A DNA stretch of 64,000 nt from Antedon mediterranea (lineage: Eukaryota > Animalia > Echinodermata), in assembly GCF_964355755.1 (NCBI RefSeq), contig NC_092673.1, positions 18,411,648 through 18,475,647 on the forward strand, written 5' to 3'. Position numbers and translations under genes: made by a program. A model generated the notes under the pieces. It ran no database searches. It worked only from the letters and a program-made list of their open reading frames with translations, and was not told the origin of the DNA. This document shows positions 921 to 36,259 of this stretch, one piece after another (position 1 is the stretch's first letter; every line of letters starts with the position of its first letter).

Positions 921-3900
921 GCAGTGTACATGAATAATAACTTACATTAAGTAATAGGCTAAAGTAAGCCCATTAACAAAAATCAAATTTTATTAAAAGA
1001 AACCAAATTAAAATAATAACTAAACAGTTATATGATTTATGATAACTGATTTAAAGTATACAGTTATCCATCATATAACATTTATCTTTTTTCTTAATGA
1101 ACAAAAACAATCTACTTGTAATTTTTTATACTAGATGGTACGCTCGCTTCGCTCGCGTACCATCTAGTTCGTGCCCACAGATGGTTCTCGAATACATAGT
1201 AATTTCAGCGTAAAAAAAATGGCGATTTCAAATGTACGTACGGCAGGACTATAAAACATTGTCGTTTACAGAAACAAATAGACACAGTGATTTATGTAGT
1301 CAACCACAATTAGCACCTAGAAACTTGTCACAAAATGAGTTCAAATTTGTTATTTGGACTCATTTAAACAAACCCAATTTTGTATCTATTAGAGTTTAGG
1401 GTTTTGTATTATATCTAACATTAGAGTTGAGCGGTGGGGATGAGGATAGGTACAAAGAGGAAAAATGTTTTAATATATTCTTTATATTAAATTATTCTTT
1501 ATATTTCTTTATTATCCACTCAGTAACGAAATATTTTTTTATAGGCCCATAAATAATATGCCACTAAATAGAGTAAAACATTTCCGATTTAATGCTTTAT
1601 TAAAACTGTCACTGTCTCATGGTCGATTGAAATACTGTAGTAAAGTACCTTTAAAGACCACTAATACGTTTATATTTTAATTATTAATTAATACAAATGT
1701 TGAGAAACAACTGACAGTATTAAAGTATTATATTATTATGTGTTTATAATCTAAAAGTAGGGGCTACCCACACTCACAGTGATAAAGTTTATTAGTATAT
1801 TTGTTTAATATTATATCTAACAGTACCAACACACTTTTGATTCAAATGGCGATCAAACGTGGTTAATACCTATTTGCAGTATTGTATAGCATTACAATAC
1901 TATTTCTGTTTATTCTCCAAGGGTCTATAAATTGACCTACTTGTGTTAAACCATGGAGGTATGCAAGTATGGTTAAACCAAATAATTTGGAATGTTCCAT
2001 TCATCGCAAATCAATACATTTGTATAAACGTATATTAAATCTATCAAAATAGTATTTTTTAAAGAAAATCGGCCTGTCTTCAACATTATGATGCTGTACT
2101 CGAGCTGTTCAACCGGTTTTCAGCCATTAAAAACAATTATCGTAGGAGGAGATAGGAAAATGCGAAGCATCCTCGCATTATCGTCTGCGGGTATTTTTCA
2201 AGACGGACATCCATTAGACAGTGTATACCACGATCGAAAAACACCCCTATTTGGGGCAAATCGTTGAACCTAAATTCGTTTTAATCGTCAATAACTAATT
2301 ATCGAACTCAATTTAATTATTAAACAGGGTTACATCAGGTGGTTAAAATCAGTACCGAAAGTACGAACCAACTTTATATACCATCGAGTAAACATTCTAG
2401 AAATAACGCGCGATTTACCAAATTTTGCCCTTACGTAAATTTATATATAGATTCAGGTGAATCAGTATAATTTTGTTTAAATATTTTTGACCGTAAAACA
2501 AATATAAATTGCTCATATGTAGCTGTAAAGATAACAATGATTGACAATGGTCTAATTAATTGTAAAGATGAAATAAAATGGGACTACATTGATTAATAAT
2601 AAAATAACAAATAAAAAAGGTTTATGTTACAAAAAATTAATAGAATCTGATTTTATTAACAAATAATTATTAATTAATAACCTGCTCCCTCTCTTACCTT
2701 ACAAAAAAATGCTTTCCTTTCCAGGATGGTAACACTCCATTACATTCATATCTGAGGATTGAATATACACAACCTACCTTAGAAATAGTGACGTGTAATG
2801 ATAATTATGATTATTTACCACAATATTTAGCAGCAATTGTTGTTGTTTGTATTGAAAAAAAAAACAAACAATTTCACATAATGTCTGTTGTCAGTATTTA
2901 TAAACTTTATTGTGATTCCTTTCCAGTATGGTAACACTCCATTACATTACTATCTGAGACATGAAGACCCTACCTTAGAAATAGTGACGCGTCTCATTCA
3001 GCATGGGGCACCAGTAGCATTGCAAAATAAGGTAATGTACAGGGATTTGCTAGTGTAATAGGCTAACATTCTATAGATATGCTGTGGTAAACCATTCTAT
3101 TTTGTTCTACTCATTTATTAATAATGATAATTATGATTACTAGATGGTACGCTCGCTTCGCTCGCGTACCATCTAGGTCGTGCCCACAGATGGTTCTCGA
3201 ATACACAGTAATTTCAGCGTAAAAAAATGCTTTTTTTAATGTACGTACTGCAGGACGATAATAGTTATTATTGTTTACAGAAACGAATAAATAGACACGA
3301 TGATTTATGTATTAAACTGAAATTAGCACACTGGGAATTACTTCCGAAAGAGAAACTTGTCACAAAATGAGTCCAAATTTGTTATTTGGACTCATTTAAA
3401 CAAACCCAATTTGTGTTTTGTGTGTAACATTAGTTTTGAGGGATGGGGAAGAGGATATGGGTACAAAGAAGAACAATGTTTTAATATATTATTTATCTAC
3501 TCAGTAACGAAATATGTTTTTCACTTTGATAGGCCTATAAATAATATACCACTTGATACAGTAACACATTTGCGATTTAATACTTTGTTAAAACTGTCAC
3601 GGTCATAGTCCATTGAAATAGCATAGTACATGTAACGATACACGTACCACTACAACGTTTATATTCTTTGTAATTATTAATTAATACAAACGTTGAGAAG
3701 CAACTGTCAGTAGTACAGTTTATTTGTATATTGTACGTTTTATATAACAGTAGGGCCTACTCACAGGCCTATAAATAATATACCACTTGATACATTAACA
3801 CATTTGCGACTTAATACTTTGTTAAAACTGTCACTGTCATAGTCCATTGAAATAGCATAGTACATGTAACGATACACGTACCACTACAACGTTTATATTC

Positions 3901-6900
3901 TTTGTAATTATTAATTAATACAAACGTTGAGAAGCAACTGTCAGTACTACAGTTTATTTGTATATTGTACGTTTTATATAACAGTAGGGCCTACTCATAG
4001 GCCTATAAATAATATACCACTTGATACAGTAACACATTTGCGACTTAATACTTTGTTAAAACTGTCACTGTTATAGTCCATTGAAATAGCATAGTACATG
4101 TAACGATACACGTACCACTACAACGTTTATATTCTTTGTAATTATTAATTAATACAAACGCTGAGAAGCAACTGTCAGTACTACAGTTTATTTGTATATT
4201 GTACGTTCTATATAACAGTAGGGCACTCACAGTAATACGTTTATTTGTACATGATTGTGTTATACATCTAACAGTACCCACACTCACATTAAATTCAATG
4301 GCGACCACAAATGTTAATACGTATTTACAGTAATGTCCAAGTATTGCAATACTTATCTATATATAGGTTTTAGGTTAATTCCCCACGGGCCAATAAATTT
4401 ACCTACAGCTGGTGGTACTTGTGTTAAAGCAAAGAGTTATTATTGGAATGTTCCATTCATCGGAAATCAATACATTTGTATAAATGTATATTAAATCTAT
4501 CAAAATAGTATGTTTTTAAGAAAATAGGTCTGTCTTCAACATTATGATGCTGTACTCGAGCTGTTCAACCGGTTTTCATCCATTAAAAACAATTATCGTA
4601 GGAGGAGATAGGAAAATGCGAAGCATCCTCGTATTATTGTATGCGGGTATTTTTCAAGATAGACATGCATTGGACAGTGTATACCACGATCGGAAAACAC
4701 CCCTATTTGGGGCAAATCGTTGAACCTAAATTCGTTTTAATCGTCAATAACTAATTATCGAACTCCATTTAATTAGTAAACAGGGTTACATCAGGTGGTT
4801 AAAATCAGTATCGAAAGTACGAACCATCTTTATATACCATCGAGTAAACATTCTAGAAGTAAGGCGCGATTTACCGAATTTTGCCCTTACGTAAATTTAT
4901 ATATAGATTTACCACAATATTTAGTAGCAATTGTTGTTGTTTGTATTGAAAAAAAAACAAACAATTTCACATAATGTCTGTTGTCAGTATTTATAAACTT
5001 TATTATGATTCCTTTCCAGTATGGTGACACTCCATTACATTCATATCTGAAACATGAAGACCCTACCTTAGAAATAGTGACTTGTCTCATTCAGCATGGG
5101 GCACCAGTAGCATTGCAAAATAAGGTAAATGTACAGGGATTTGCTAGTGTAATAGGCTAACATTCTATAGATATGCTGTGGTAAACCATTCTATTTTGTT
5201 CTACTCATTTATTAATAATGATAATTATGATTATTTACCACAATATTTAGCAGCAATTGTTGTTGTTTGTATTGAAAAAAAAAACAAACAATTTCACATA
5301 ATGTCTGTTGTCAGTATTTATAAACTTTATTGTGATTCCTTTCCAGTATGGTGACACTCCATTACATTACTATCTGAGACATGAAGACCCTACCTTAGAA
5401 ATAGTGACGTGTCTCATTCAGCATGGGGCACCAGTAGCATTGCAAAATAAGGTAATGTACAGGGATTTGCTAGTGTAATAGGCTAACATTCTATAGATAT
5501 GCTGTGGTAAACCATTCTATTTTGTTCTACTCATTTATTAATAATGATAATTATGATTATTTACCACAATATTTAGCAGCAATTGTTGTTGTTTGTATTG
5601 ACAAAAAACAAACAATTTCACATAATGTCTGTTGTCAGTATTTATAAACTTCATTATGATTCCTTTCCAGGATGGTGACACTCCATTACATTCATATCTG
5701 TGGAGTGGATATACTGCACCTACCTTAGAAATAGTGACTTGTCTCATTCAGCATGAGGCACCAGTAGCATTGCAAAATAAGGTAAATGTACAGGGATTTG
5801 CTAGTGTAATAGGCTAACATTCTATAGATATGCTGTGGTAAACCATTCTATTTTGTTCTACTCATTTATTAATAATGATAATTATGATTATTTACCACAA
5901 TATTTAGCAGCAATTGTTGTTGTTTGTATTGAAAAAAAACAAACAATTTCACATAATGTCTGTTGTCAGTATTTATAAACTTCATTATGATTCCTTTCCA
6001 GGATGGTGACACTCTATTACATTCATATCTGTGGAGTGTACGTACACCTACCTTAGAAATAGTGACGTGTTTCATTCAGCATGGGGCACCAGTAGCATTG
6101 CAAAATAAGGTAAATGTACAGGGATTTGCTAGTGTAATAGGCTAACATTGTATAGATATGCTGTGGTAAACCATTCTATTTTGTTCTACTCATTTATTAA
6201 TAATGATAATTATGATTATTTACCACAATATTTAGTAGCAATTGTTGTTGTTTGTATTGAAAAAAAACAAACAATTTCACATAATGTCTGTTGTCAGTAT
6301 TTATAAACTTCATTATGATTCCTTTCCAGGATGGTGACACTCTATTACATTCATATCTGTGGAGTGTACGTACACCTACCTTAGAAATAGTGACGTGTCT
6401 CATTCAGCATGGGACACCAGTAGCATTGCAAAATAAGGTATTGTACAGGGATTTGCTAGTGTAATAGGCTAACATTCTATAGATATGCTGTGGTAAACCA
6501 TTCTATTTTGTTCTACTCATTTATTAATAATGATAATTATGATTATTTACCACAATATTTAGCAGCAATTGTTGTTGTTTGTATTGAAAAAAAAAACAAA
6601 CAATTTCACATAATGTCTGTTGTCAGTATTTATAAACTTTATTGTGATTCCTTTCCAGTATGGTAACACTCCATTACATTACTATCTGAGACATGAAGAC
6701 CCTACCTTAGAAATAGTGACGTGTCTCATTCAGCATGGGGCACCATTAGCATTGCAAAATAAGGTAAATGTACGGGGATTTGCTGGTGTAATAGGCTAAC
6801 ATTCTATAGATATGCTGTGGTAAACCATTCTATTTTGTTCTACTCATTTATTAATAATGATAATTATGATTATTTACCACAATATTTAGTAGCAATTGTT

Positions 6901-9900
6901 GTTGTTTGTATTGACAAAAAACAAACAATTTCACATAATGTCTGTTGTCAGTATTTATAAACTTTATTATGATTCCTTTCCAGAATGGTGACACTCCATT
7001 ACATTCATATCTGAGACATGAAGACCCTACCTTAGAAATAGTGACTTGTCTCATTCAGCATGGGGTACCAGTAGCATTGCAAAATAAGGTAAATGTACAG
7101 AGATTTGCTAGTGTAATAAGCTAACATTGTATAGATCTGATGAAGTGAACCATTCAGCAGTAATTGTTGTTGTTTGTATTTACCAAAAAAAAAAACAATT
7201 TCACATAATGTCTGTTGTCAGTATTTATAAACTTCAGTATGATTCCTTTCCAGGATGGTGACACTCCATTACATATATATCTGAGGAGTAGTTTTGTTTT
7301 GATTTAGATATTCATTTATAAGTCAACTATAATTGTAATGTGTTGTTGTTGTTTTAATATTTCATTTGTATCTGGAAGTATCCAAATATTATTTGCTTTG
7401 AAAGTTTATAGTAAAACTATTTGTTGTTTTATATTATGGCTCAAACATTTTACCTACTGTTCCAAAGTAAACTTTTATTCAATTTATCTCTCTCTCTCTC
7501 TCTCCTCTCTCCTCCATCTTTCAATGTTGAAGGCGGTAGACTATAAACAGCAGCACTCAAGTTTTGGTTTGGATACAGGAGTTATAGGTGGCGCACTGTA
7601 CAAATTGATGTAATTTATTAGCAAATAGTAATTTCTATTCACGTCCTAATTTACAACCAATGTAAAAAAATAGTAAATCTACGTGTTATCACGTGATGCT
7701 CTTTCATCCAATCTCTAGATGGTAAATGTTTGAGCCATGACATGATACTGTATGTATGTGATGCGTAATTAAAGTGTGTTATATTGTATATCAATAATTT
7801 CTCAAAAACTACTAATAACTAAACCCATTTTTTTAATAGGATGGAAATACACCTGTCTCTGTTTTAGAAAGTAACAGGCGGATAGGGGACCAGAGAAAAA
7901 CTGAAATTTTAAACTTCTTTAAAAGTAAGTGAAGTTTTAATTATTAAAATTTTGGAATCAACTAGTTTTCATTACAAACGATAAAGATTTGATTTCTTGT
8001 CCCAAATGAAGAAGAATGTCCAGATAAAGAAAATTAACATTTATGATATCATTCACAGGTTCAGATGACAATAGATTAAATAATCCACTGGGATTGTAGT
8101 AAACATGGAAGTTGTGATATGTTGCAAGATGTAAAAACCTTATTTTTTATGATTTGAACATTGCAAATAAATTAGAAAAATTATTTTGCCATTACGATAA
8201 AAATACACAAAAATGCAAACTTTAAAATTCCTTTGAATTAACAATATTGAATAAATTAGGCCACACTTTTTTTTTATGGAACGTCATTTTTCACATCGAA
8301 TCAATCTCTTTATTCATCAATACATCAAAACAATTATACATAAACAAAATAAAGATGTGAAGATGAAAGGGACCTCCAAGAAACCCAAAGGGGCTTGTGA
8401 TAAAAGGCCCACTATAAGCTAGTTACAAAAAAAACATACAAAAAATAAATTAATAAAATTAATAAAAATCCTGTATAGACAAATACACGGGATGCGCATT
8501 GTTAAGGAATATTTGAACTTTACTAATTGCATATAAATGTAATCTATTTTATATATAATGGTATTATTTAAAATATGTATTCGCAATCGAGGCAAACAAT
8601 TTACGATAGGAGGAGATAAATATTGAATTTAACAAGGCCATATAGATGACTGCAGTCGCTTGCTCAAGTTAGTGTTTACCAACCGACCGACATAGTGAGT
8701 TGTAGAGTGGCGTTGCACGTGACTAAAAATCTAATTTTCTTGTTAATCCCATTTTTTGTTTCGACAATGGACTCATTTTAAAGCCTGCTTTAGAATACTA
8801 TTTCTCTGTATGTAAAATTAAACATCATGCATAATGTATTTTACCTTCGCTCCTACAATTGTATTATCTTATACCAGGAGCGGATCTAGTCATTTTTATT
8901 TGAACTTTATTAATTGCATATAAATGTAAAATGTAGATTTTTTTTTAGATTGTCGATATGGGACAAACAATTTTTTTTTTCTAAACGCCCGGAGATAGCA
9001 GCGTTTTGGTCGGTCGATTCTTGTCATATAATTATCTAAATATATGTTGATACAAAGTTTGCGATACACCGTGTATATAAGTTTTAAAAAGGACTATTGA
9101 GTTTCTCGACGTTTCAATCAATATTCGTTGATCGTCCTCAGGAGAGAGAATGCAGAAAGTCCATGAAACTGGGAATATAAGTGGAATATGGTATATAAAT
9201 ATAGTTTGGTTTTAAAGCCTGTTTTCTTGTCGATGTAACGTTACAGCGAGTTTCGTTGATTTGAGTTGAGTTTTCAAATTGTTAAAGTTGAAAAAAATAA
9301 TAACGATGATCGATCCGGATTGGTAATATTTACATGATCGTTCATAGTTCTCTTGAGCGGTAAAGTGACACGCGGACGTAAAGTGTTGCAGAACCAAGAC
9401 CGGCCACGGCAGCTGTGGTCGCGTGAAAATTGAAAAAGTTATGGGTTTTGATGCTTCAATCCAGCCTAGGGCATGTTTTCGATTATTAATCTAGGCTTTA
9501 CACTAAAGAAACATTAAATTAAATTGTTTTTATATTATAATTATTTTGACTTACACTTAAACATTGTTGTGTTTTTAAAAATTCAAGAATTGTCAGCGCG
9601 TACATATTTTTTCACAAACTGTGATGACGTGATTTGTGAACTATTTGATTGGTCAGTTGAAGTTGAACTTGGTTCAATAATTAAAGATTTTAACGATTTT
9701 TAATGTTTTTACCTCATCTTCCTGTAAAATTGTTGTATGTAAATGGGTGGCGTGTCAATGACATTTAAAAGAATATACAACCCCCTAACCCCCCCCCCCC
9801 CCCCCCAATTTTCCCCTGTGTACAACTTCCCAAGCAAATAGTATAATGCAAAGCAATACATAATATTTGAGCAGTTAACTTATTGAAAAATTGAGCTCAA

Positions 9901-12900
9901 TAATACTATAGAGTACAAACAGAATAATAGAATATTATACAGATATTGCCTGCTTAGAGGTTAAATATAAGATTTGACATCCCCGAGGGAATGTTCGAGG
10001 GAATATATATTTCCCGAAGCGCTAGTTCTCGAGAACATAATATCATTCCCAAGGGGTTGTCAAATCTTATATTTTACCGATATAAAAGGCGATATCTGTT
10101 ATATTTATAGCCAACAACAAGTTGAATATCTACTGCTGGGTTGGATGTAGCAAGGCCTCCTTTGTAATAAGCCTGCCTAGTTTGTGTTGCATTCACCTTA
10201 CCTTGCGAAGAATAATATACAGATAATTACTAATTAGTGATTCCTTGGCAATAAAATATTCACTTAGGCCTATGTCATTTAAATTAACAGTTGAATTCCA
10301 TCAATAAGCCTACATTACTGATAATAATATTATTATCAGGTAGGCCGAATAAATCATAATTCGTCTTCTTCGAGGAGCCGAATCACCGGATGTTCAGCGC
10401 GCCGTTGTATTGTGAAGATGGACAAATTATCGCGAGTTCAAGTCTCAGTAGATGACTTTTGTTTATTTATCGCCAAACGCGAGTGTTGCCACACGAAAAT
10501 TACACAGTCAATATCATCGTACTCGAGGATATATACAATTTATGATCCTGGCAGCGGTAGTCATGTTTCAACCAATCACGTGAACGTATTTACATAGGCT
10601 ATGTAATGTTATACAGATATTGCCTGCTTAGAGGTAAAATATAAGATTTAACATCCCCGAGGAATGATATTCCCTCGAACAAAATATCTTTCCCCGAGGG
10701 ATGTCAAATCTTATATTTTACCGATATAAAAGGCAATATCTGTTATATTATATATAGCCAACAACAAGTTGAATATCTGCCTAGTTAGGCGTTGCATTCA
10801 CCTTACCTTGCGAAGAATAATATACAGATAATTACTAATTAATGATTTCTTTGGCAATAAAGTATTCACTTAGACCAGGTTGTTTAAATTAACAGAAAAA
10901 TTTCCATCAATAAGCCTACATTAATTATAATAATAATAATATTATCAGGTAGGCCCAATAAATAATAATTCGTATTCTTCGAGGAGCCAAGTCGCCGGAT
11001 GTTCAATTGATCAATCACAAACGGTCTTTCTTCGCCTCTGGAGAAGGCTAATAACAAATGAGGGCGCTTTGTATGCATAGTTTAAATAGTTGATTAATTT
11101 CTTCAAGCAAGTTGCGTAGCGCTGCGGGTAAAACGTCGTCTCGTGATGATGTGGGCTAATCTTCGCGAGTTCAAGTCTTAGTAGATGACACGAAAATTAC
11201 ACAGTCAATATCATCATACTTGAGAATTTTATTTATTTTATTTTTATTTTATTCAGTTGACAACCAACAGCAATGAAACCGCCACTAACAGGTTGAATCT
11301 AAACATAATAAACTATAATAATACCCAAATAAGCAACAATAACATAAACAAAGATTGGAACATTATAGAGATTTTTAATTAACCTGCAAACAAAAATGTA
11401 ACTTACTACGCCAATAAGGTTGATGTTTATATGCCACAACTCTACAGATCACACATAGACCGATGTAATGCGAATAATGTATTTTAATAACTGTCAATAA
11501 CTCAATACAACAACATGGAAATCAAAGCAACAACGAACGAACAACGCCAGCCCATGAGGGCGCACTGGCGCTATCAATCAAAACTCCTAAATCCCTTTGA
11601 AAATTTACACGGATTTTATATGTTTAATGACAGGGACACGATAATTACTCGAAAATTACTCCGTCAATATCATCATACTCGAGGATACAGTATATACCAT
11701 TTACAATCCTTGCAGTGGTACTCATGTGATGCAGTTTCAACCAATCACGTTCACGTATTTACATACATTACACATGTAATATAAATAAATATTTAGCCTT
11801 GCCTTGGTGGTACTGTTACTAGTACTAACTAAAAAGGGAACCATACCTGAATGTGAAAGTTGACAAACTTTTATAGGCTAAAACCAATCATATATTACAC
11901 TTAAGTCCAATTATGCGCAATTGCAGTTGAGTTTTACAAGTAGTGTTAAATGCAATTCAACTTCAGTGGAAATAGAATGTACTGCACTTAAGTCAAATAT
12001 ATTGCACTTAAGTCAAATGTAGTATACTTAGTTGAATACAATTGTACTTCAATGCAATGTATTGTATCAAGGTAAATTCAAGGTATTTGTCTTAAGTTTA
12101 ACTTGGAGGTAACTGATAAAATTGCTTGCCATAGCAGTGATGCTTCATCTTTGGTTCGCAGATTGTTATACTGAATTCTATGTGTATAATGTTAATATAT
12201 GTTGTGAATTTTCAATTATGTATACAGTTCAAATATGAGTGGGATATTGTTGTTTTTGTATACTGGTCCCCCTTCCACAATACTTGACCCCTCTCAAATT
12301 TAGCATTAGATGCGCCCCTGCTTCAATAGGATCAAATCCCCCTTGTCATTCCCCCTCTCCAATGATCTGAGTCATGAATATTTTAAAGTGTTGCCAAGCT
12401 GACGTGAAATTTTATATAGTTCTTTTATAAACAAAATTATATGTAATTGTTTTGTTTTTGGTAATTTTTCAGATTTAACAAGTCCTGTTAGTGATCAATT
12501 TGAGAAACTAAAGGTTGAAAAACAGAATGGTGAGTTTAAGAATCATCATCAGAATTTACTTTTCCCTGAATTATCAAGTATTCTACTATCTTTCTAAACA
12601 GGACTGTCTGTATGTCAACCAATGCATATCTGTAGATACCTTGGCTTACTACTAGTAACAATTTCTCACTGAAAGTTCATTTATTGGGCACCAGACATTT
12701 GCAAATGCTAAGTAACTAATTGATAATATAATAATGTTGATTAAAAATCCAATAAATCCAATATGCAAAAAAAATAAATAAACAAAGCAGAAACTGTTGG
12801 CCTACACTGTAGCTATCCACAGAATAATAGAGTATTTCAAAAAAGAGTTTGAGGGGAAAAAGTGCTTAATCAATTCAATTTCTTTTATTTCATTCTTAAA

Positions 12901-15900
12901 TTTCATCCATACCAACAAACGTACAAACAGAAAAAAGAAAATTTGCAAACTCTAAGCTTAAATATATATGATATTTCTCCATCTACAATACATATGTTTG
13001 CAAACACAAGCAACAAGAATTTTACAACTATTCAACATACATTGCATGAAACCTTAGATAGATTTTTGCATATACTCATTAAGGGAAAGGACACTATGTT
13101 CAATAAACATCATACTGATGGCACTACTGATTCTAGAGACATTCAGTATATGGCGCAGAGCATTATTTTAGCATACATTAAGAGATCTAAATGTCTTAGA
13201 TGGTCACACCAAAGGGCAGCACAATAAAGATTAATACAATAAGATCTAAAGAGGCAACATAACATTATATTAGTAATTTGCGATTGAGTGAACCCCACCC
13301 TGTCTAACTCCATTAGATACTGTAAATGGAATATATATGTTGCACAGGAGAGGGGACATAACCCCACCCTGTCTAACTCCATTAGATACTGTAAATGGAA
13401 TATATATGTTGTACAGGAGAGGGGACATAACCCCACCCTGTCTAACTACATTGGATACTGTAAATGGAATATATATGTTGTACAGGAGAGGGGACATAAC
13501 CCCACCCTGTCTAACTCCATTAGATACTGTAAATGGAATATATATGTTGTACAGTAGAGGGGACATAACCCCACCCTGTCTAACTCCATTAGATACTGTA
13601 AATGGAATATATATGTTGTACAGGAGAGGGGACATAACCCCACCCTGTCTAACTCCATTAGATACTGTAAATGGAATATATATGTTGCACAGGAGAGGGG
13701 ACATAACCCCACCCTGTCTAACTCCATTAGATACTGTAAATGGAATATATATGTTGTACAGGAGAGGGGACATAACCCCACCCTGTCTAACTCCATTAGA
13801 TACTGTAAATGGAATATATATGTTGTACAGTAGAGAGGACATAACCCCACCCTGTCTAACTCCATTAGATACTGGTAAATGGAATATATATGTTGCACAG
13901 GAGAGGGGACATAACCCCACCCTGTCTAACTCCATTAGATACTGTAAATGGAATATATATGTTGCACAGGAGAGGGGACATAACCCCACCCTGTCTAACT
14001 CCATTAGATACTGTAAATGGAATATATATGTTGCACAGGAGAGGGGACATAACCCCACCCTGTCTAACTCCATTGGATACTGTAAATGGAATATATATGT
14101 TGCACAGGAGAGGGGACATAACCCCACCCTGTCTAACTCCATTAGATACTGTAAATGGAATATATATGTTGTACAGGAGAGGGGACATAACCCCACCCTG
14201 TCTAACTCCATTAGATACTGTAAATGGAATATATATGTTGTACAGTAGAGAGGACATAACCCCACCCTGTCTAACTCCATTAGATACTGTAAATGGAATA
14301 TATATGTTGTACAGGAGAGGGGACATAACCCCACCCTGTCTAACTACATTAGATACTGGTAAATGGAATATATATGTTGTACAGGAGAGGGGACATAACC
14401 CCACCCTGTCTAACTCCATTAGATACTGTAAATGGAATATATATGTTGTACAGGAGAGGGGACATAACCCCACCCTGTCTAACTCCATTAGATACTGGTA
14501 AATGGAATATATATGTTGTACAGGAGAGGGGACATAACCCCACCCTGTCTAACTCCATTAGATACTGTAAATGGAATATATATGTTGTACAGTAGAGAGG
14601 ACATAACCCCACCCTGTCTAACTCCATTAGATACTGTAAATGGAATATATATGTTGTACAGTAGAGGGGACATAACCCCACCCTGTCTAACTCCATTAGA
14701 TACTGTAAATGGAATATATATGTTGTACAGGAGAGGGGACATAACCCCACCCTGTCTAACTCCATTAGATACTGTAAATGGAATATATATGTTGTACAGT
14801 AGAGGGGACATAACCCCACCCTGTCTAACTCCATTAGATACTGGTAAATGGAATATATATGTTGTACAGTAGAGAGGACATAACCCCACCCTGTCTAACT
14901 CCATTAGATACTGTAAATGGAATATATATGTTGCACAGGAGAGGGGACATAACCCCACCCTGTCTAACTCCATTAGATACTGTAAATGGAATATATATGT
15001 TGTACAGTAGAGAGGACATAACCCCACCCTTTCTAACTCCATTAGATACTGGTAAATGGAATATATATGTTGTACAGGAGAGGGGACATAACCCCACCCT
15101 GTCTAACTCCATTAGATACTGTAAATGGAATATATATGTTGTACAGGAGAGGGGACATAACCCCACCCTGTCTAACTCCATTGGATACTGTAAATGGAAT
15201 ATATATGTTGTACAGGAGAGGGGACATAACCCCACCCTGTCTAACTCCATTAGATACTGTAAATGGAATATATATGTTGTACAGGAGAGGGGACATAACC
15301 CCACCCTGTCTAACTCCATTAGATACTGTAAATGGAATATATATGTTGTACAGTAGAGGGGACATAACCCCACCCAGTCTAACTCCATTAGATACTGTAA
15401 ATGGAATATATATGTTGTACAGGAGAGAGGACATAACCCCACCCTGTCTAACTCCATTAGATACTGTAAATGGAATATATATGTTGTACAGGAGAGGGGA
15501 CATAACCCCACCCTGTCTAACTCCATTAGATACTGTAAATGGAATATATATGTTGTACAGGAGAGGGGACATAACCCCACCCTGTCTAACTCCATTAGAT
15601 ACTGGTAAATGGAATATATATGTTGTACAGGAGAGGGGACATAACCCCACCCTGTCTAACTACATTGGATACTGTAAATGGAATATATATGTTGCACAGG
15701 AGAGGGGACATAACCCCACCCTGTCTAACTACATTGGATACTGTAAATGGAATATATATGTTGCACAGGAGAGGGGACATAACCCCACCCTGTCTAACTC
15801 CATTAGATACTGGTAAATGGAATATATATGTTGTACAGGAGAGGGGACATAACCCCACCCTGTCTAACTACATTGGATACTGTAAATGGAATATATATGT

Positions 15901-18900
15901 TGCACAGGAGAGGGGACATAACCCCACCCTGTCTAACTCCATTAGATACTGGTAAATGGAATATATATGTTGTACAGGAGAGGGGACATAACCCCACCCT
16001 GTCTAACTCCATTAGATACTGTAAATGGAATATATATGTTGTACAGGAGAGGGGACATAACCCCACCCTGTCTAACTCCATTAGATACTGTAAATGGAAT
16101 ATATATGTTGTACAGGAGAGGGGACATAACCCCACCCTGTCTAACTCCATTAGATACTGGTAAATGGAATATATATGTTGTACAGGAGAGGGGACATAAC
16201 CCCACCCTGTCTAACTACATTGGATACTGTAAATGGAATATATATGTTGCACAGGAGAGGGGACATAACCCCACCCTGTCTAACTCCATTAGATACTGGT
16301 AAATGGAATATATATGTTGTACAGGAGAGGGGACATAACCCCACCCTGTCTAACTCCATTAGATACTGTAAATGGAATATATATGTTGTACAGGAGAGGG
16401 GACATAACCCCACCCTGTCTAACTCCATTAGATACTGTAAATGGAATATATATGTTGTACAGGAGAGGGGACATAACCCCACCCTGTCTAACTCCATTAG
16501 ATACTGTAAATGGAATATATATGTTGTACAGTAGAGAGGACATAACCCCACCCTGTCTAACTCCATTAGATACTGTAAATGGAATATATATGTTGTACAG
16601 GAGAGGGGACATAACCCCACCCTGTCTAACTACATTAGATACTGGTAAATGGAATATATATGTTGTACAGGAGAGGGGACATAACCCCACCCTGTCTAAC
16701 TCCATTAGATACTGGTAAATGGAATATATATGTTGTACAGGAGAGGGGACATAACCCCACCCTGTCTAACTCCATTAGATACTGTAAATGGAATATATAT
16801 GTTGTACAGGAGAGGGGACATAACCCCACCCTGTCTAACTCCATTGGATACTGTAAATGGAATATATATGTTGCACAGGAGAGGGGACATAACCCCACCC
16901 TGTCTAACTCCATTGGATACTGTAAATGGAATATATATGTTGCACAGGAGAGGGGACATAACCCCACCCTGTCTAACTCCATTAGATACTGTAAATGGAA
17001 TATATATGTTGTACAGGAGAGGGGACATAACCCCACCCTGTCTAACTCCATTAGATACTGGTAAATGGAATATATATGTTGTACAGGAGAGGGGACATAA
17101 CCCCACCCTGTCTAACTACATTAGATACTGTAAATGGAATATATATGTTGTACAGTAGAGGGGACATAACCCCACCCTGTCTAACTCCATTAGATACTGT
17201 AAATGGAATATATATGTTGTACAGGAGAGGGGACATAACCCCACCCTGTCTAACTCCATTAGATACTGTAAATGGAATATATATGTTGTACAGGAGAGGG
17301 GACATAACCCCACCCTGTCTAACTCCATTAGATACTGGTAAATGGAATATATATGTTGTACAGGAGAGGGGACATAACCCCACCCTGTCTAACTCCATTA
17401 GATACTGTAAATGGAATATATATGTTGTACAGTAGAGAGGACATAACCCCACCCTGTCTAACTCCATTAGATACTGTAAATGGAATATATATGTTGTACA
17501 GTAGAGGGGACATAACCCCACCCTGTCTAACTCCATTAGATACTGTAAATGGAATATATATGTTGTACAGGAGAGGGGACATAACCCCACCCTGTCTAAC
17601 TCCATTAGATACTGTAAATGGAATATATATGTTGTACAGTAGAGAGGACATAACCCCACCCTTTCTAACTCCATTAGATACTGGTAAATGGAATATATAT
17701 GTTGTACAGGAGAGGGGACATAACCCCACCCTGTCTAACTCCATTAGATACTGTAAATGGAATATATATGTTGTACAGTAGAGAGGACATAACCCCACCC
17801 TGTCTAACTCCATTAGATACTGTAAATGGAATATATATGTTGTACAGGAGAGGGGACATAACCCCACCCTGTCTAACTCCATTAGATACTGTAAATGTAA
17901 TATATATGTTGTACAGGAGAGGGGACATAACCCCACCCTGTCTAACTCCATTGGATACTGTAAATGGAATATATATGTTGTACAGGAGAGGGGACATAAC
18001 CCCACCCTGTCTAACTCCATTAGATACTGTAAATGGAATATATATGTTGTACAGGAGAGGGGACATAACCCCACCCTGTCTAACTCCATTAGATACTGTA
18101 AATGGAATATATATGTTGTACAGGAGAGGGGACATAACCCCACCCTGTCTAACTCCATTAGATACTGTAAATGGAATATATATGTTGTACAGGAGAGGGG
18201 ACATAACCCCACCCTGTCTAACTCCATTAGATACTGTAAATGGAATATATATGTTGTACAGGAGAGGGGACATAACCCCACCCTGTCTAACTCCATTGGA
18301 TACTGTAAATGGAATATATATGTTGCACAGGAGAGGGGACATAACCCCACCCTGTCTAACTCCATTAGATACTGTAAATGGAATATATATGTTGTACAGG
18401 AGAGGGGACATAACCCCACCCTGTCTAACTCCATTGGATACTGTAAATGGAATATATATGTTGCACAGGAGAGGGGACATAACCCCACCCTGTCTAACTC
18501 CATTAGATACTGTAAATGGAATATATATGTTGTACAGGAGAGGGGACATAACCCCACCCTGTCTAACTCCATTAGATACTGTAAATGGAATATATATGTT
18601 GTACAGTAGAGGGGACATAACCCCACCCTGTCTAACTCCATTGGATACTGTAAATGGAATATATATGTTGTACAGTAGAGGGGACATAACCCCACCCTGT
18701 CTAACTCCATTAGATACTGTAAATGGAATATATATGTTGTACAGGAGAGGGGACATAACCCCACCCTGTCTAACTCCATTAGATACTGTAAATGGAATAT
18801 ATATGTTGTACAGGAGAGGGGACATAACCCCACCCTGTCTAACTCCATTAGATACTGTAAATGGAATATATATGTTGTACAGGAGAGGGGACATAACCCC

Positions 18901-21900
18901 ACCCTGTTTAACTCCATTAGATACTGTAAATGGAATATATATGTTGTACAGGAGAGGGGACATAACCCCACCCTGTCTAACTCCATTAGATACTGTAAAT
19001 GGAATATATATGTTGTACAGGAGAGGGGACATAACCCCACCCTGTCTAACTCCATTAGATACTGTAAATGGAATATATATGTTGTACAGGAGAGGGGACA
19101 TAACCCCACCCTGTCTAACTCCATTAGATACTGTAAATGGAATATATATGTTGTACAGGAGAGGGGACATAACCCCACCCTGTCTAACTCCATTAGATAC
19201 TGTAAATGGAATATATATGTTGTACAGGAGAGGGGACATAACCCCACCCTGTCTAACTCCATTAGATACTGTAAATGGAATATATATGTTGTACAGGAGA
19301 GGGGACATAACCCCACCCTGTCTAACTCCATTAGATACTGTAAATGGAATATATATGTTGTACAGGAGAGGGGACATAACCCCACCCTGTCTAACTCCAT
19401 TAGATACTGTAAATGGAATATATATGTTGTACAGGAGAGGGGACATAACCCCACCCTGTCTAACTCCATTAGATACTGTAAATGGAATATATATGTTGTA
19501 CAGGAGAGGGGACATAACCCCACCCTGTCTAACTCCATTAGATACTGTAAATGGAATATATATGTTGTACAGGAGAGGGGACATAACCCCACCCTGTCTA
19601 ACTCCATTAGATACTGTAAATGGAATATATATGTTGTACAGGAGAGGGGACATAACCCCACCCTGTCTAACTCCATTAGATACTGTAAATGGAATATATA
19701 TGTTGTACAGGAGAGGGGACATAACCCCACCCTGTCTAACTCCATTGGATACTGTAAATGGAATATATATGTTGTACAGTAGAGGGGACATAACCCCACC
19801 CTGTCTAACTCCATTAGATACTGTAAATGGAATATATATGTTGTACAGGAGAGGGGACATAACCCCACCCTGTCTAACTCCATTAGATACTGTAAATGGA
19901 ATATATATGTTGTACAGGAGAGGGGACATAACCCCACCCTGTCTAACTCCATTAGATACTGTAAATGGAATATATATGTTGTACAGGAGAGGGGACATAA
20001 CCCCACCCTGTCTAACTACATTAGATACTGTAAATGGAATATATATGTTGTACAGGAGAGGGGACATAACCCCACCCTGTCTAACTCCATTGGATAATGT
20101 GGATTGGAAACAGAGTTACCCCAATGTATCACAAAACTTTGTTTCTCATACCAACATTTGAGCAATTTAACAATACAAAGATTCATACCATTGTTAATGA
20201 GCTTACTATGAAGAGTCCACATTGATTGACTTGATCAAAAGCCTTACTGGCATCTAGAGAGCAGGCAAAAACTGGACTACCATTTCTATTGTAGTAGTCA
20301 ATGACATGTTTTAATACAAAGATACAAGTATCAGTCAAGTGTTTTGCTTTAAATGCAAATTGGTAGTCGCTGGATTCAAATGAGTTACCACAGTGACTGA
20401 TCAAAATAAATTTAAAAAACTTAGATAATACAGAAGCTAAAGCATAGGGGTATAATTGTTGTTATTAGTAATATCACCTGATTTACTCTTAACAATCGGC
20501 ACTAATAACTAGAATAACACATGACCATGACACAGCATATCATTAAAGCATATACTCAATAAGATATTAACCCTTTAAAGACATGGCCCGCATCCATACG
20601 GGGTAATTTACTGTCCCAGGACATGCAATCAGGCGCAGGATTGGTTAAGGCAAATAACAGAATAGGCAAATTGGTTGGTTTTTTCATTGGAAAGCAGCAA
20701 ATAAGCCTATCCTACAACACTGCTAAAAGCAGTCCCACTGTCCATTTGACCAATTCTGCGCTTTTTTAAAGACATGAGGCCCGTATATGTACGGGTTGAC
20801 TTTTTGGGGTCACTAAATTGCACTTTTTGAGCATTTGACCTTTGAACTAGGCAAAACAAAAATTTTTTGGAAGGCCAAAACATTTCACATAATAAATCCA
20901 ACAATTGCAGAAAGTTATATAGTCATAAAAATGGATTTTTTCATTTTTCCTAAACCTATTAAAAATACCTTATTTAGCCTCAGTCACTTGGGGTAGAAGA
21001 AACCTTGCGTCTTCAAATGGTTAAGTCCTTTACTAGCATATTTAATGTGTGCACAATAATAATTTATTATTATACTGTATGACACACTCATCAATGTAAA
21101 CAATTAACCATTACAGTGTGTTATATGCATAGATATGAATGCAGATGTAGAAAATGTGTAATGGAATAATAGGAATAAAGATTGTATGAAATTGTCTGTT
21201 AATCCTGGAAAGTTCAATTCAATTTCAATATTATAACATAAAAAACATAAAACTAGTTTGTTAATAAATATAATTGCATATAAATACAATGAAAAGTAGT
21301 TCAGTCATGAGGGTAGAGAGTAATGTAAGTCAGAAGATATAACATTAAATACAAAAAAGAAAAAGAAATACATGAACTAATAGTATATATTTAAAAAAAA
21401 CAAAGCCACAATTTCTATTTAAACCACTTTATCCGATCTTAACAGGTCTTATTATAATATATATATTTAATGTTCATCATATCTAGAAAGTAAAAGACTA
21501 AACATTAATTTAGAAACACAGTGTAAATATTTACAATAGAATGAGTATTGTATATTCTGTATAATATATTGTATATAATTATTAATAAGCTGGTGTAGTA
21601 TTGATACCACAGCAGAAACTGGCCACAATAAAAAATGAATGAAAATGAAATATAACTATTCTATAAATATAACCATTGAGAAATAATTTCTTCATGATAT
21701 AAATAAACACATGTGTATGATAAATCAGGTTGAAATAAAATAATTTGCATTGTGTAATGAAGACAATTGTGGCAATGGCTATTTATCAAATACCAATATC
21801 TTACATTAGATTTTTATTTTTCAGATCAAATTATGGAAGTAATTGTGGGATCTGCTGGTGAAACACTTCATCTTAAGGATGAAGACATCAAGTTGGAGAT

Positions 21901-24900
21901 ACATTCTGAAGCAATTGAAGGGGAAACAGTTAAAGTATCGCTAGAAAATTTTTCTGAGGAAACAGGCATGCCTGTACTTCATTCTCATGAATCAATAATA
22001 TCACCTATTGTTAAATGTGGACCAGAAGGCACCAGCTTCAAAAAGCCCATTTTATTGTCATTTCCACACGATGCTGTAAATGAAGAGAATTGGAAATTCA
22101 CTCTACTTGTTAAAGATCGCATTCAAGATGAATGGAAACAAATAGCATTGACAAATGATAGAAAGGACGTTCATTTTACTTTAAACAACGGTCGATGTTA
22201 TGTAACTTTAAAACATTTCTGTTTTTATACACTAATGGGTCATCTAAGGAATTTGTTTGGTAAGAAAAAAATGTTGTTAGGAGTTTTTGGAAAGATGCTT
22301 TCAAATGATGATTATCAACTTCTAACAAGATTTTGTAAGCCATCAGATAAAAAGGTAATTGCTATAATTTGTTTTTAAACTGTATTTGAATAATGTACTA
22401 ATAAATTGGATAATTTAATACCTCAATAAATTCCTGCTATTTGATTGGATGATTGTGGGTCACATGGTGTGCAATAGTACATAAATAATCAATGTTTATA
22501 AGTGTAATGGTAGAAACAATGAGATGATTGATGAAAGGTTATGATTCAAAGCCGAGTTGAACATAACATTTCATTATTCACCAAATGCCATTATTTGTAC
22601 AATTACACGAATCTAAAACATGCATCTATATATTAATGCTACTAAATTAGTTTCATAATTTTACGTATCTCCCTCGAAAGCGCTGAATGGTATATGCTCA
22701 TATTTGACTGATGTTTCTTGATGAGATGCACACGATAGGCTATAACTCTTTCCTCAACTTGAAGCAAAAAGTAACAGTAATTTGAGAGCCATGTTTCATG
22801 AGTTGTTACATCACGTATCAACTATGCAACCTCCTCTGTTGTGTAACGTAATGGTTGGATCTACAAATACTATGCAGAGCCACCAAATTACAGTGTTTAG
22901 TCTCGACAGCCGGCCAACCGTATCAACTGATTGCGTTTAATTAATCACACTTATTCGTGGAACATAATAAATTTTGTAAATCATGGCTACCTTGGTGATT
23001 AAAACACTTTGGTCAATGATATTTTTAGTATATTCAAGTTTGAATTCATGAAATGTGTAAATAATAATTATCACCGCTTAATGGCAAAAATCGAAACTAG
23101 ACAGGCCTAATCCAACCCCCACCAAAATTCATCAGTGGCAGGAATTCGTTCACCTAAGTACCATTTTGAGAGAGATAGTGCTCTTAATATTAAAAAAAAC
23201 CTTAAGTAACTGTTCTATTAAACCTGATATTGCTCATTTAAAAAAATAAATGAAACCTTTACTACTTCAAATCAAGAGATTGGTGATTTGTTTAATAAGC
23301 CTTTTCAATCAGTTTTAATCCAGGAAAAATGTAACAACATCTCAAAACCAAGATTGAAAATATTAAATTTCAGTGTTCAATATCTCCAATCCTGAGGGCC
23401 CATTACACACAAGGTCACTTATATATTTACGAATTGACAACATTTTTTTATGCAAGAGTGATAAAACTCTGGAACAAACTTCCCTCAAATGGTTTCATGC
23501 ACTACGTTCCATATTTTTAAGAACACCTCTGCAAAGAGTGAAGTTACTGTTACTTTTCAGTTGATTAACATTACTGTACTTACAGTTAAAATTATTTTAA
23601 AAATTAAGGTATTGATAAATCATGTAATTGAATTGATCTGTTAATAATTATAAAATATGCTGTGAAGAAGTGATGATTGCCATGTACACTTCCCTCAAAT
23701 AATTAAGAGACAAAAAAAACTACAAATATATCTGTATATTACTACTATAAGTATATACATATTTCAGATGATTGAAGAAGACCACATAAAAATTGGTGAG
23801 CAGCCTTTAATAGTACCTGAAAATATACTTGTCATGTATAAGGACATGAAAATCACTGTAGCATTATCAAATCAGGAATGGAAAGTTCAGAAGGATGAAG
23901 AAGTAAGAATATTTTTTTTATAATTTTATAATTTTATGAATAATCATAATATTTTTAGTACTGAAAGTTGCCATGGTAAAGAATATGCATTAAATTTGCA
24001 GTAATACGACATAACTTGATCATTAATAACCAAAAATCCATTGCTATCCAATTAAGCATACTGGTCCATGATACTAAGTTCTTGGAATACAAAATTGTGA
24101 TTAGTTCTTTGGAGGATACACACACATTTTTTTAGATTTCTTATTGAGAGAAAAAATGAAAGCATTACCAGTATAAAAAAAATATTTAAAAAAATATATA
24201 TAAATAAATAGTATAATATTTATTCACCACAGCAATCAATTTAACTACAATGCCTTATAATATAATATAATAGTAATAATAATTTAATATAATATAATTT
24301 ATCTTAGCATGACTTCATTGTTTCCCTAGAATGTCAAGGCGGAAAACCTATGGCGTACAGGACCATCCAAGAAATTTCTTTTAAGAAGAAGTAATTCTTC
24401 AGCAAAAGTCCTAAAGGCAACAGTATTACTTTCACAAGAGTCAAATGATATTGATCCAGTGGAAGTGAATTGTAAGTATATAAAATGCTAACAGTAAGTC
24501 TAAATTTAGAAAGATGATTGTAATAAATAAAATGTAGTATTCAAATACGGTAATCAGACATTAACCATCCATGACAATAACCACCCATTATTGACTGTAC
24601 CATAGTTAGAATATGGGTTGGAAACAATGTAACGCCCGTATTCTTAAACCGGACTTTAGTCGTAGTTCGAAGTTCGACTTGAAAAAGTCGTAGTTCGAGC
24701 TATTACTTCAAATTCGATTCAAAAACGAAGTAGTCGAAGTTTGCAGTTCGACTTAATGAAGTCGAGCTTTTAGTCGAGTTGCACACGTCTGGGTAACAAA
24801 GGCTATACATTGGCCAATGACAAGAGAGTATTTGAGGAGCAGAAGAAATTTTGCGCATTGATATTACTTTCCATTTCTTACAACACTTTTTACGCATCAG

Positions 24901-34398: not shown

Positions 34399-36259
34399 GA
34401 TGAAACTATTTTACTATAAAAATCCATAATATCTTTCATGATTTCTTAACAAAATAGATCTCTCATTCACGTAAATTTCTGCCGCCACATATTTTGGATT
34501 GCTTTTAATTTTTTTTAAATGGGCCTATTCAATTATCAAATCAAGTAGTATATTAACCGGTGAAGAAGTACAGCCTATAACCAATCAACACAACAAATCG
34601 TAACATAATAATAATAAGCCACAGAAAAAGAAGCCAAGGCAAATTTCATATTTCAATGAATAGATTGTATCATAGGCTATAACAATAGTAATAGGTTACA
34701 AATACAAATTGTTACGGTGTAAGCATGGAGTAAAGAATATCTAGCTTGTCTTGAAAAATTAGTGAAACAGTGTGGTGATGTGAGATTCCGTTTTTCGAAC
34801 TTTTTTTCTGTTGTTGGTCAATTTATTCAGTTTTCTATTTTCATTTTCACACTTGCATAGAGACTACTTGTATTTTGCGCTATATAAATTTAAAACCATT
34901 ATATTGAATAAACAGTAGCCAAAACATGGTATTTTGGTAAATCTAATCCAGCAGAAGTACTGAATTATGTTTTTTTCAGCCTTTTATAGTAATTTTACCG
35001 ACTTTTAAACAATTTTGACTTAAAATCATGTCATACGAGCACTTCGAATTGGACAATTCGCGTCGTTTTTATGAAAAAGTACAAAAATGCGTCAAAATTA
35101 TGCCTTTTTTTTAACAGTCATAGTTTCTAAACTACATGGTGCAGTTTATTTTTATTACATATTCTGGAAGTAGATGCGTTGTGACGTCATCGTATGGCCA
35201 CTTGAATATAAAATATAGGATTTTTGTCATAGCTCATCACATTTAATAGAGCGCATCTCCACTTATCCGTATTCCATTTCCCCCCATTTTTTTATATTGT
35301 CTAGGTCAATCAATTATCTTTCGCATGATTTACCATTTTTTAAATTGTGATGACGTCATCTTGTTCACAAAAAAATTGTAAAAATTGGATGAAAAGGCGG
35401 GTCCCGTTATTTTCACATATTCTGCACTGTATGTAGTACGTATAAAATATATAGTGACGTATACTGTATATACTTAGACGTGACACACAATAGAGAGCAC
35501 ACTAACATTTTTTCAATGGCTTAATTGTTTTTCTTTGGGCAATAATTATTCTAACGTATGATGTGCACATGGTGTTTGCGCGGCGGATAACCTAACTCGT
35601 CTATTTTTAGTGCTGCAACTGCAATATTTTAAAATAAACCTTGAATATAAATAATAATAATTAACTACAAGAAAGGCTGGTTTTTATTTTTTAAAATTAT
35701 TTTATTATTTATTATTTTACTGTGTTTGTTTTCAATTTCTGTAAATAAATAATAAATAAATTATATTAAATTAAATAAAGACACCTTGATTATATATCTT
35801 TTCAAGAGGATTTTATGGAAACAAACATACTTTTTTTTTTTCCTTTTTTTCTTGTTTACATTCTACATTATTTTTTAAAAATTGTATAAAATATGTTTGC
35901 TGGCGATTTGATGTTGGAAAAAAGCCACTGCAATCCATTTATCCATCCAACATTGTCATATTGTAGTAACACGGTATGTACGTATAAGGTAATCCGGAGT
36001 TTTCACCACTTATTTTTACCAACTAGACAATCAAGCTGTAACAATGTTATGAACACCTTTGTATTTCCTTTTTACTTTAATTGAAGACGGTTTAATCTAT
36101 CACTAGGCCTATATTTATAATTGACTGAATTACAATTATACTTTTGATGGTGATCCTTGAAATGCTTATCTCTGAACACTGTGTACCTACCTATTCATTA
36201 CTTAATCCACATAAGTTGTAATAAGTGTTATTTGTTTTTGTGTTTGTGTTTGTTGCACA

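Follow-up and report, generated by a model that had tools for sequence, protein, structure and literature searches.

Exon-level shuffling of protein repeats is already documented in brown algal candidate immune receptors, and sensors built from high-identity ankyrin (ANK) repeats are documented in fungi, where repeat-number polymorphism and positive selection have been shown in Podospora (PMC4986451; PMC13449251). These studies, with PMC3341825, are the precedents for reading the locus described here as a repeat-shuffled sensor. Our literature searches found nothing relevant on one-repeat-per-exon ankyrin genes. Nor did they turn up a crinoid family of the ANK-ROCO or ANK-ZU5-DED type; crinoid immunity has been little studied for a class of deuterostomes.

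We analyzed 64,000 nucleotides of the crinoid Antedon mediterranea (NC_092673.1, 18,411,648-18,475,647, forward strand), hereafter the window, whose own numbering is used throughout. It contains eight intact exons that each encode a single ANK repeat. The array, its capping exon and the three broken copies that flank it (816, 2725 and 7254) are as follows.

816-920, + strand: degenerate copy of the ANK exon with loop YMYSV, lacking a pyrimidine tract and ending in a GC donor
2725-2796, + strand: truncated ANK exon with loop RIEYTQ, which has lost its 3' half and donor and is fused to the intron palindrome
2927-3031, + strand: intact ANK exon 1, 105 nt, phase 0-0, loop RHED
3139-4909, no strand assigned: interspersed element of ~1.77 kb that interrupts the AT palindrome of a standard intron
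4907-7155, + strand: tandem array of exon-plus-intron units (TRF: period 327, 6.9 copies, 94% matches)
5020-5124, + strand: intact ANK exon 2, 105 nt, loop KHED
5347-5451, + strand: intact ANK exon 3, 105 nt, loop RHED
5671-5781, + strand: intact ANK exon 4, 111 nt, loop WSGYTA
6002-6109, + strand: intact ANK exon 5, 108 nt, loop WSVRT
6330-6437, + strand: intact ANK exon 6, 108 nt, loop WSVRT
6659-6763, + strand: intact ANK exon 7, 105 nt, loop RHED
6984-7088, + strand: intact ANK exon 8, 105 nt, loop RHED
7254-7289, + strand: truncated ANK exon, first 12 codons, matching donor absent
7840-7924, + strand: phase 0-1 exon that caps the ANK domain at its C-terminus, 21/28 identical to relative P0011

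The intact exons (105, 105, 105, 111, 108, 108, 105 and 105 nt, 5' to 3') have TTTCCAG acceptors and GT donors, are phase 0-0 in 8/8 cases and are all distinct in sequence. Seven of the eight sit in units of 324-331 bp whose introns are about 98-99% alike, and the introns from exon 5020 to exon 6984 measure 219-222 nt each. This confirms the anatomy given in the initial annotation, namely eight intact phase 0-0 one-repeat exons in ~330-bp units with near-identical introns. The intron after exon 2927 is 1,988 nt long because of the inserted element, which has a hairpin at its start and contains a 234 bp x3 tandem; a second copy lies at 1129-2453, a stretch that had also been considered as a segmental duplication. 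TRF reported further satellites near the array. Repeats of the array are on average 81% identical (range 69-94%) over 284 aa, the criteria in use for high-identity repeats being 85% over 100 aa (PMC4986451) or a Psim of 0.7 (PMC13449251). Pfam Ank matched all three exons tested, two of them above the curated cut-off. A reading of 7840-7924 as a full ANK repeat was rejected in favour of a capping exon of phase 0-1. The degenerate 816-920 copy shares 77% nucleotide identity with exon 5020 and is probably excluded from the spliced message, and read-through from the truncated exon 2725-2796 is out of frame with exon 2927. No ANK repeat exon was found on the minus strand of the window. A start exon and an N-cap exon are absent from the window, where tblastn with six N-termini of relatives gave no match. 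The array is likely part of one feather-star gene.

Divergence between units is uneven, as the initial annotation had expected of exon against intron. Pairwise diversity is 0.087 in the first 30 nt of the exon and 0.032 in the last 63 nt, against 0.018 in the upstream and 0.011 in the downstream intron (seven units). The loop cannot be aligned between classes, which lie 6-12 edits apart. Between adjacent units 6330 and 6659, a pair chosen after inspection, 8 edits fall in the 15 nt of the loop and 6 in 220 nt of intron (Fisher p 8e-8). The recombination among units that had been proposed is supported by the four-gamete test, in which 15 of 55 informative site pairs are incompatible. The prediction of dN/dS above 1 finds no support outside the loop, where pN is 0.050 and pS 0.049, so that positive selection is not demonstrated. 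Nor is the scaffold fully fixed, the last 21 codons carrying six singleton replacements and one synonymous change; these replacements suggest weak purifying selection on the array copies.

Equal pN and pS, together with singleton replacements at conserved ANK positions, would also be expected if the exon-intron unit were spreading in a near-neutral, minisatellite-like manner through a dispensable or decaying paralog in which old loop classes are tolerated. The three broken copies, the element insertion, the missing start exon and the other satellites close by fit this reading. We nevertheless hold it unlikely: frame and splice sites are intact in all eight intact exons, the loop stays divergent amid homogenised flanking DNA, and in most of the 11 relative models variation within the gene falls at these positions too. 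Moreover, family members are spliced, and among 12 of 14 rows of read-derived loop inserts, five of the six inserts listed keep the frame, with 4-11 aa.

The variety within the array is modest, with four distinct loops in three classes: RHED in four intact exons, KHED in one, WSVRT in two and WSGYTA in one. Two further variants that the initial annotation had counted, RIEYTQ and YMYSV, occur only in broken copies. RIEYTQ and the I after TPLH derive from the truncated copies (2725, 7254), whereas YMYSV and the A after TPLH come from the degenerate copy 816-920, outside the range 2700-7924 then assigned to the array; the pooling of broken with intact exons had made the in-array diversity too high. 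The proposed match to the positions randomised in DARPins (designed ankyrin libraries) holds in part. The array shares with DARPins the fold and a fixed scaffold, and four of the six randomised positions (3, 5, 13 and 14) vary in the window. In contrast to them it is natural, positions 2 and 33 are fixed, and framework positions 7 and 10 vary. Its main variable element is a length-variable loop, an insertion of 3-11 residues in place of a short helix turn, for which the DARPin module of 33 residues offers no equivalent. Insertions at a helix turn are perhaps merely tolerated, a point against the view that the loops are selected.

Within genes the most variable positions are 13, 14, 3 and 10, on the concave face by repeat numbering. 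Position 13 varies within 10 of 11 relative models, and the recurrence of the pattern in these 11 models supports the earlier claim that variation clusters at binding-face positions. DARPin-randomised positions score 0.40 and other positions 0.17 (p 0.06, 12 genes), a tally that supersedes a first pass on four genes (p 0.002). In the predicted model of relative P0010 (pLDDT 86.7) the variable segment lies between two helices, and the top Foldseek rows for this model are DARPins; the ANK identity of the repeats is given by the Pfam Ank match and by the helix-turn-helix stack in the model.

All close relatives are unnamed A. mediterranea gene models, here compared as proteins from automated predictions. 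Eleven proteins, all from this species, score at least 32 bits per repeat, the next best scoring 22.9, and 8/8 matches of the ZU5 search are also A. mediterranea models. Family models are spread over at least five different contigs, and a further homolog search returned no additional family member and no other crinoid. The gene that carries the array thus likely belongs to a crinoid multigene family. Exons measure 105-126 nt, the length varying through the loop, and 40 repeats from 12 genes contain 33 distinct loops of 3-9 residues; this tally dropped seven unparsed repeats, and it omitted P0015, P0043 and P0138 because they nearly duplicate other models or are isoforms. Scaffold distance is 0.14 within genes (75 pairs) versus 0.44 between genes (705 pairs), and on these distances the scaffold is homogenised gene by gene. 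A scan of 17 ORFs of the window and of 17 proteins detected no NACHT or NB-ARC STAND domain.

Eleven sequencing runs are listed, none with RNA on record, and four of them were compared. Run X5, classed as RNA by a tool's guess, is the only one of the four in which an exon end is joined back to an exon start (three contigs), and it also contains a loose end that continues into a cap exon. Transcription of the exons, assumed in the initial annotation, is thus seen for the family, as ANK-to-ANK and ANK-to-cap splicing in a probable RNA run, and not for the locus itself; the contigs of X5 do not match the reference exactly (the record that spans the exon departs from it at 13 letters) and are therefore evidence for the family. 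Contig depth, not taken here as a measure of expression or copy number, rises over exons in X5, whereas in DNA runs it rises over the unit. The short, near-identical units and the numerous related contigs in the DNA runs are also what one would see if the assembly had collapsed or over-expanded repeat copies. Such an artefact is extremely improbable, as all eight exons differ and an independent A. mediterranea assembly yields proteins with the same repeat pattern and up to eight repeats.

Because splice sites are near-identical and any donor joins any later acceptor in frame, diversity could instead arise within the individual, by regulated exon skipping or somatic recombination, giving a cell-level repertoire like that of Dscam or VLR. 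Splice variants of brown algal ROCO LRR exons are reported in PMC11378527, and a 22-nt AT palindrome, present in every standard intron, coincides with deletion and insertion breakpoints. However, this palindrome was spotted post hoc and is equalled by 39 of 1000 shuffles, introns of ~220 nt permit inclusion of all exons, no docking or selector element was seen, and eight exons with three loop classes make a small repertoire. The contigs are too short to phase near-identical exons. We consider this origin very unlikely. Decidedly unlikely too is an extended version, a natural DARPin library of intracellular ANK receptors whose CDR-like loops of 3-11 residues are recombined between units and paralogs, re-sorted within the individual by exon skipping or somatic recombination, and connected through phase-1 linkers to alternative ROC-COR-DED or ZU5-UPA-DED outputs; if true, it would be an anticipatory ankyrin-based receptor system in a non-vertebrate deuterostome. 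With such short units in a multigene family, the choice between germline and within-individual diversification can be tested by long reads.

Downstream of the capping exon the following features were identified.

12473-12529, + strand: linker exon, phase 1-1, 12/17 identical to the linker before ZU5 in relative P0006
21825-22354, + strand: ZU5 exon (Pfam E 7.5e-17)
23768-23902 and 24330-24471, + strand: two UPA-like exons, matching relatives
25838-25867, 26387-26653 (optional) and 28768-28977, + strand: low-complexity linker exons
30918-31387, + strand: terminal exon, tandem DED-like (Pfam below cut-off plus structural match)
32191-32720, + strand: second possible terminal exon, DED-like, same phase as 30918-31387

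The nearest open gene model in the window reads ANK-cap-ZU5-UPA-tandem DED; between exon 2927 and a DED-like exon the frame stays open for 836 or 856 aa, and from this open frame we infer that the ANK module is joined to ZU5-UPA-DED. Of the death-fold output that had been proposed, a DED-like exon downstream of the array in one open frame is supported, whereas the splice from this ANK module to ZU5-DED is a prediction. The ZU5 exon has UNC5B as its best PDB match. Relative P0005 matches UPA below cut-off, and the window exons match relatives in that region. The best structural matches of the DED-like exon are the DEDs of caspase-8 and FADD (Z 8.5, rmsd 2.9, 69 aligned; Z 7.7, rmsd 4.6, 136 aligned), obtained with a weak model, for which pLDDT is 57, the Foldseek E exceeds 0.1 and Pfam stays below its cut-off; a PDB sequence search with this exon gave 0 matches and Foldseek none at E <=0.001. 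A C-terminal death domain was not found, the best matches being DEDs, though of the death fold.

Two ROC-COR genes lie further downstream (43.4-51.4 kb and 52.1-60.7 kb), 36 kb from the array. In 10 of 14 relative models ANK is joined to a ROC GTPase, the other four are ANK-only and none joins ANK to ZU5, so the diversified module may be wired to ROC-COR or stand alone, ZU5-UPA-DED being a separate gene or an alternative output. Accordant with this, P0011, the closest cap match, continues into a ROC of the same clade as those of the window, and in both window genes an AG stands before the first ROC exon, likewise in phase 1. Yet ZU5 comes first and in frame, with no start exon found in between, and the window linker matches the one directly before ZU5 in P0006, which itself begins with the post-cap linker of P0011 (27/39 identical). 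The first ROC gene, moreover, has an apparent ATG exon of its own at ~43,440. Wiring to ROC-COR or to nothing further is quite unlikely on this balance.

What is demonstrated is the anatomy of exons and splice sites, the mosaic make-up of the units, the divergence of the loop in homogenised DNA and the recurrence of this pattern in relatives. We think it probable that the eight exons form the sensor end of an intracellular crinoid receptor, shuffled in the germline, with predicted ZU5-UPA-tandem DED signalling. Since the units are phase 0-0 and their introns near-identical, misaligned crossovers would add, delete or recombine whole repeats with the frame intact. Unequal crossover and gene conversion in the germline would thus diversify the array; conversion would homogenise intron and scaffold, while selection would preserve differences among the in-frame loops that lie between helices 1 and 2 and among the residues at positions 3 and 10. 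Loops may also be donated by broken exons and by paralogs. The repeat stack would recognise a ligand that evolves fast, and a FADD or caspase-8-like partner would be brought in by the tandem DED, a ROC-COR GTPase presumably acting as the switch in most relatives. By analogy, the putative sensor family may have an immune or cell-death role.

Several known systems resemble this design. The predicted order ANK, ZU5, UPA and death fold is that of the ankyrin, UNC5 and PIDD proteins, but the crinoid protein has one ZU5, a tandem DED replaces the death domain, and its repeats are near-identical and young, in a lineage-specific expansion; it is no ankyrin orthologue. In sessile marine invertebrates, lineage-specific expansions based on DED, immune or apoptotic in nature, likewise shuffle DED, ANK, ZU5-UPA and NTPase domains, but in the accessible text of PMC8195603 they are defined by TRADD-N and crinoid ANK-ROCO genes are not mentioned. 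Fungal high-identity ANK NLRs (Dyrka 2014, PMC4986451; PMC13449251) share near-identical repeats under concerted evolution, variable inner-helix and beta-turn sites and a death-type effector; the crinoid proteins lack NACHT or NB-ARC, each repeat has its own exon and variation is mainly in loop length. The parallel with the LRR-ROCO genes of Ectocarpus, drawn in the initial annotation, is real and closer than claimed, because most relatives are ANK-ROC proteins. As in the brown algal genes, every symmetric exon of the crinoid array encodes one repeat, the introns harbour inactivated repeat exons and the repeat region recombines; ROC-COR follows downstream in most family members, and the immune role is a proposed one. 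The crinoid system differs in that the repeats are ANK rather than LRR or TPR and lie N-terminal in an animal protein with a DED, exons vary through the loop instead of being fixed at 72 nt, whole exon-intron units are homogenised, inverted exons were not found and the present locus leads first to ZU5-UPA-DED. The best reading, by analogy, is a germline repeat-shuffled intracellular sensor like the brown algal LRR-ROCO proteins and the fungal ANK NLRs, with the length-variable loop as what best distinguishes it from both. If true, an animal lineage has converged on the algal and fungal repeat-shuffling design, with a loop that widens the binding face past what DARPin libraries randomise.

Eight intact exons encoding one ankyrin (ANK) repeat apiece were described in the initial annotation, and this description holds: all eight are phase 0-0 with canonical splice sites, Pfam Ank was matched in all three of the array exons tested, and the array is a real feature. 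Introns are likewise in register with the repeats in vertebrate ankyrin genes. Seven of the eight intact exons form a tandem array with a period of 327 and introns of 219-222 nt, and the first is separated from them by a 1.77 kb insertion. The same region holds three broken ANK exon copies and a capping exon:

Broken and capping exons of the ANK array (window positions)
Starts at 816: broken ANK exon copy
Starts at 2725: broken ANK exon copy
Starts at 7254: broken ANK exon copy
7840-7924: capping exon

Diversity among the units runs at 0.011-0.018 for introns; within the exon it is 0.087 over the initial 10 codons and 0.032 over the final 21. The loop, a length-variable stretch separating the two helices of the repeat, falls into classes too unlike to be aligned with one another. 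Four different loops, belonging to three classes, occur in the intact exons; these four account for the part of the initial list of variable loops and residues that stands, the remaining entries coming from broken copies. Between adjacent units 6330 and 6659, a pair picked after inspection, we counted 8 edits in 15 loop nt versus 6 in 220 intron nt. The loop is thus an island of divergence amid homogenised DNA. All four gametes were present in 15 of the 55 informative site pairs, indicating that the units are mosaics. Outside the loop, 11 out of 12 codon variants alter the residue. The intact exons nevertheless give no replacement excess there, with pN (0.050) equal to pS (0.049), and six of the scaffold changes are singletons. 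Positive selection is therefore not demonstrated, and young copies under relaxed constraint are a possible explanation.

With phase-0 units and near-identical introns, unequal crossover could gain or drop entire repeats, or recombine them, without disturbing the frame; conversion would homogenise intron and scaffold and selection would likely preserve distinct loops. Broken exons may serve as loop donors, as proposed for Ectocarpus (PMC3341825). A 22-nt AT palindrome is found in every standard intron (5540-5561 and the equivalent place in other units); the breakpoint of the deletion in copy 2725 falls in it, as does the element insertion, and the shortened intron upstream of 7254 lacks it. Since 39 of 1000 shuffles match this palindrome, its role is only a lead. 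Three copies of one interspersed element (3139-4909, 1129-2453 and about 300-700), two beginning with a 37-nt hairpin, all lie in the ANK region.

The tally of variability across the family covers 12 genes and their 40 parsed repeats, a further 7 having been dropped by the parser. The loops of these repeats, 3-9 residues long, comprise 33 distinct sequences. Scaffold distance over this set is 0.14 within genes and 0.44 between genes, which indicates concerted evolution of the scaffold. In DARPin numbering, the positions most variable within genes are 13 (0.78), 14 (0.65), 3 (0.57) and 10 (0.47); position 5 reaches 0.28, and positions 2 and 33 are almost fixed. The positions randomised in DARPin libraries are 2, 3, 5, 13, 14 and 33; the residue at position 10 is able to touch the target (PMC8248824). 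Variability is 0.40 at the randomised positions versus 0.17 at the others, with p 0.06 over 12 genes and p 0.002 in a four-gene first pass. The predicted structure of P0010, an automated model of a relative, matches DARPins; in it the variable segment lies between the first and second helices, with a nine-residue loop modelled less confidently. Going by known ANK geometry, the loop would stand out at the edge of the concave face, which is the binding face of ANK (PMC8229355).

When the window exons are joined by splice site, the reading frame stays open for 836 or 856 residues. It encodes eight ANK repeats and a cap, then a linker, ZU5 and a UPA-like segment, and after a low-complexity linker it ends in either of two DED-like terminal exons. 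Start and N-cap exons are absent from the 64-kb window. The ZU5 identity is secure, and in this gene the cap would be spliced to ZU5. The DED assignment comes from a Pfam match below threshold and a weak structural model (pLDDT 57) whose top matches are the caspase-8 and FADD DEDs. Judged from domain content, the predicted protein would bind a ligand and signal through its DED. The two DED-like terminal exons (30918-31387 and 32191-32720) are both open with identical phase, making alternative C-termini possible; 18-bp repeats at 26387-26653 encode a G/S/V/A-rich linker in a possible optional phase 1-1 exon, and an additional DED-like exon begins near 63553. The linker-to-ZU5 intron contains a 69-bp unit repeated 98.5 times with 97% matches (13291-20100), whose minus-strand translation is a motif known from LINE reverse transcriptase; an RT-like ORF (20183-20461) adjoins it, making the array a retroelement-derived minisatellite of 6.8 kb. 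LINE remnants, an endonuclease ORF (Pfam Exo_endo_phos) and an ORF downstream, lie at 36215-38531, and 12.8 copies of an 88-bp unit form a tandem array at 61747-62859.

All eight matches of the ZU5 exon search (among 245 candidates) were Antedon mediterranea models, at 53-77% identity, which makes a feather star the probable source of the window. Of 7,989 candidates scored with a repeat profile, 21 proteins matched, eight of them from A. mediterranea, and a full HMMER search added four. At a per-repeat score of at least 32 bits, 11 proteins were retained, all in the family, the next score being 22.9. Among 14 relative models, ROC follows ANK in 10 (two are isoforms of one gene), four are ANK-only and none joins ZU5 to ANK. 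The ZU5-DED model P0006 begins with the linker that follows the cap in the ANK-ROC model P0011, and the window linker exon matches the linker preceding ZU5 in P0006. On this linker evidence, the ANK module may be placed on either output, ROC or ZU5. In the A. mediterranea models P0001-P0008 and P0017, segments of ZU5-UPA, DED, ROC-COR and transmembrane-like type are combined in many different orders, with some present twice; these models are a lineage-specific domain-shuffled family. The window also holds two tandem ROC-COR genes without ANK (43400-51400 and 52100-60750), which belong to the clade of the ROC that comes after ANK in P0011 and of P0017's second ROC-COR.

We compared one unit and the cap exon with contigs of 4 sequencing runs (among 11) at 80% likeness. 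Two features were peculiar to X5 among these, a run from a different sample than the window and RNA according to the tool's guess: an exon end joined back to an exon start (in 3 contigs, with the intervening letters not given), and a donor-side loose end that continues into a cap exon. This joint and loose end show repeat-to-repeat and repeat-to-cap splicing in family members; the X5 contigs speak for the family and cannot be assigned to the window locus. Further loops were seen in runs of two organisms, five of the six inserts listed keeping the frame (4, 6, 10, 4 and 11 residues). Compared by hand, two of these inserts are also present in A. mediterranea models: RTVN in P0015/P0017 and RSLY in P0012. 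Overall, we somewhat favour a sensor diversified in the germline; diversification within the individual seems very improbable.

No description of this crinoid family was found in the literature covered, main texts drawn mostly from outside subscription journals, and a listing elsewhere is possible. In its workings the array resembles two known groups, brown algal LRR-ROCO genes (PMC3341825, PMC11378527) and the high-identity ANK NLRs of fungi (PMC4986451, PMC13449251), but it has neither LRR nor a STAND domain and belongs to neither group. High-identity-repeat NLRs are also noted in animals (PMC13449251), ANK-ROCO proteins occur in oomycetes and Gonium (PMC11378527), sessile marine animals have DED-based shuffled expansions (PMC8195603), and repeat expansion bounded by exons is a general phenomenon (PMC1553488). 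The overall design has precedents, and the crinoid form is a variant of it.
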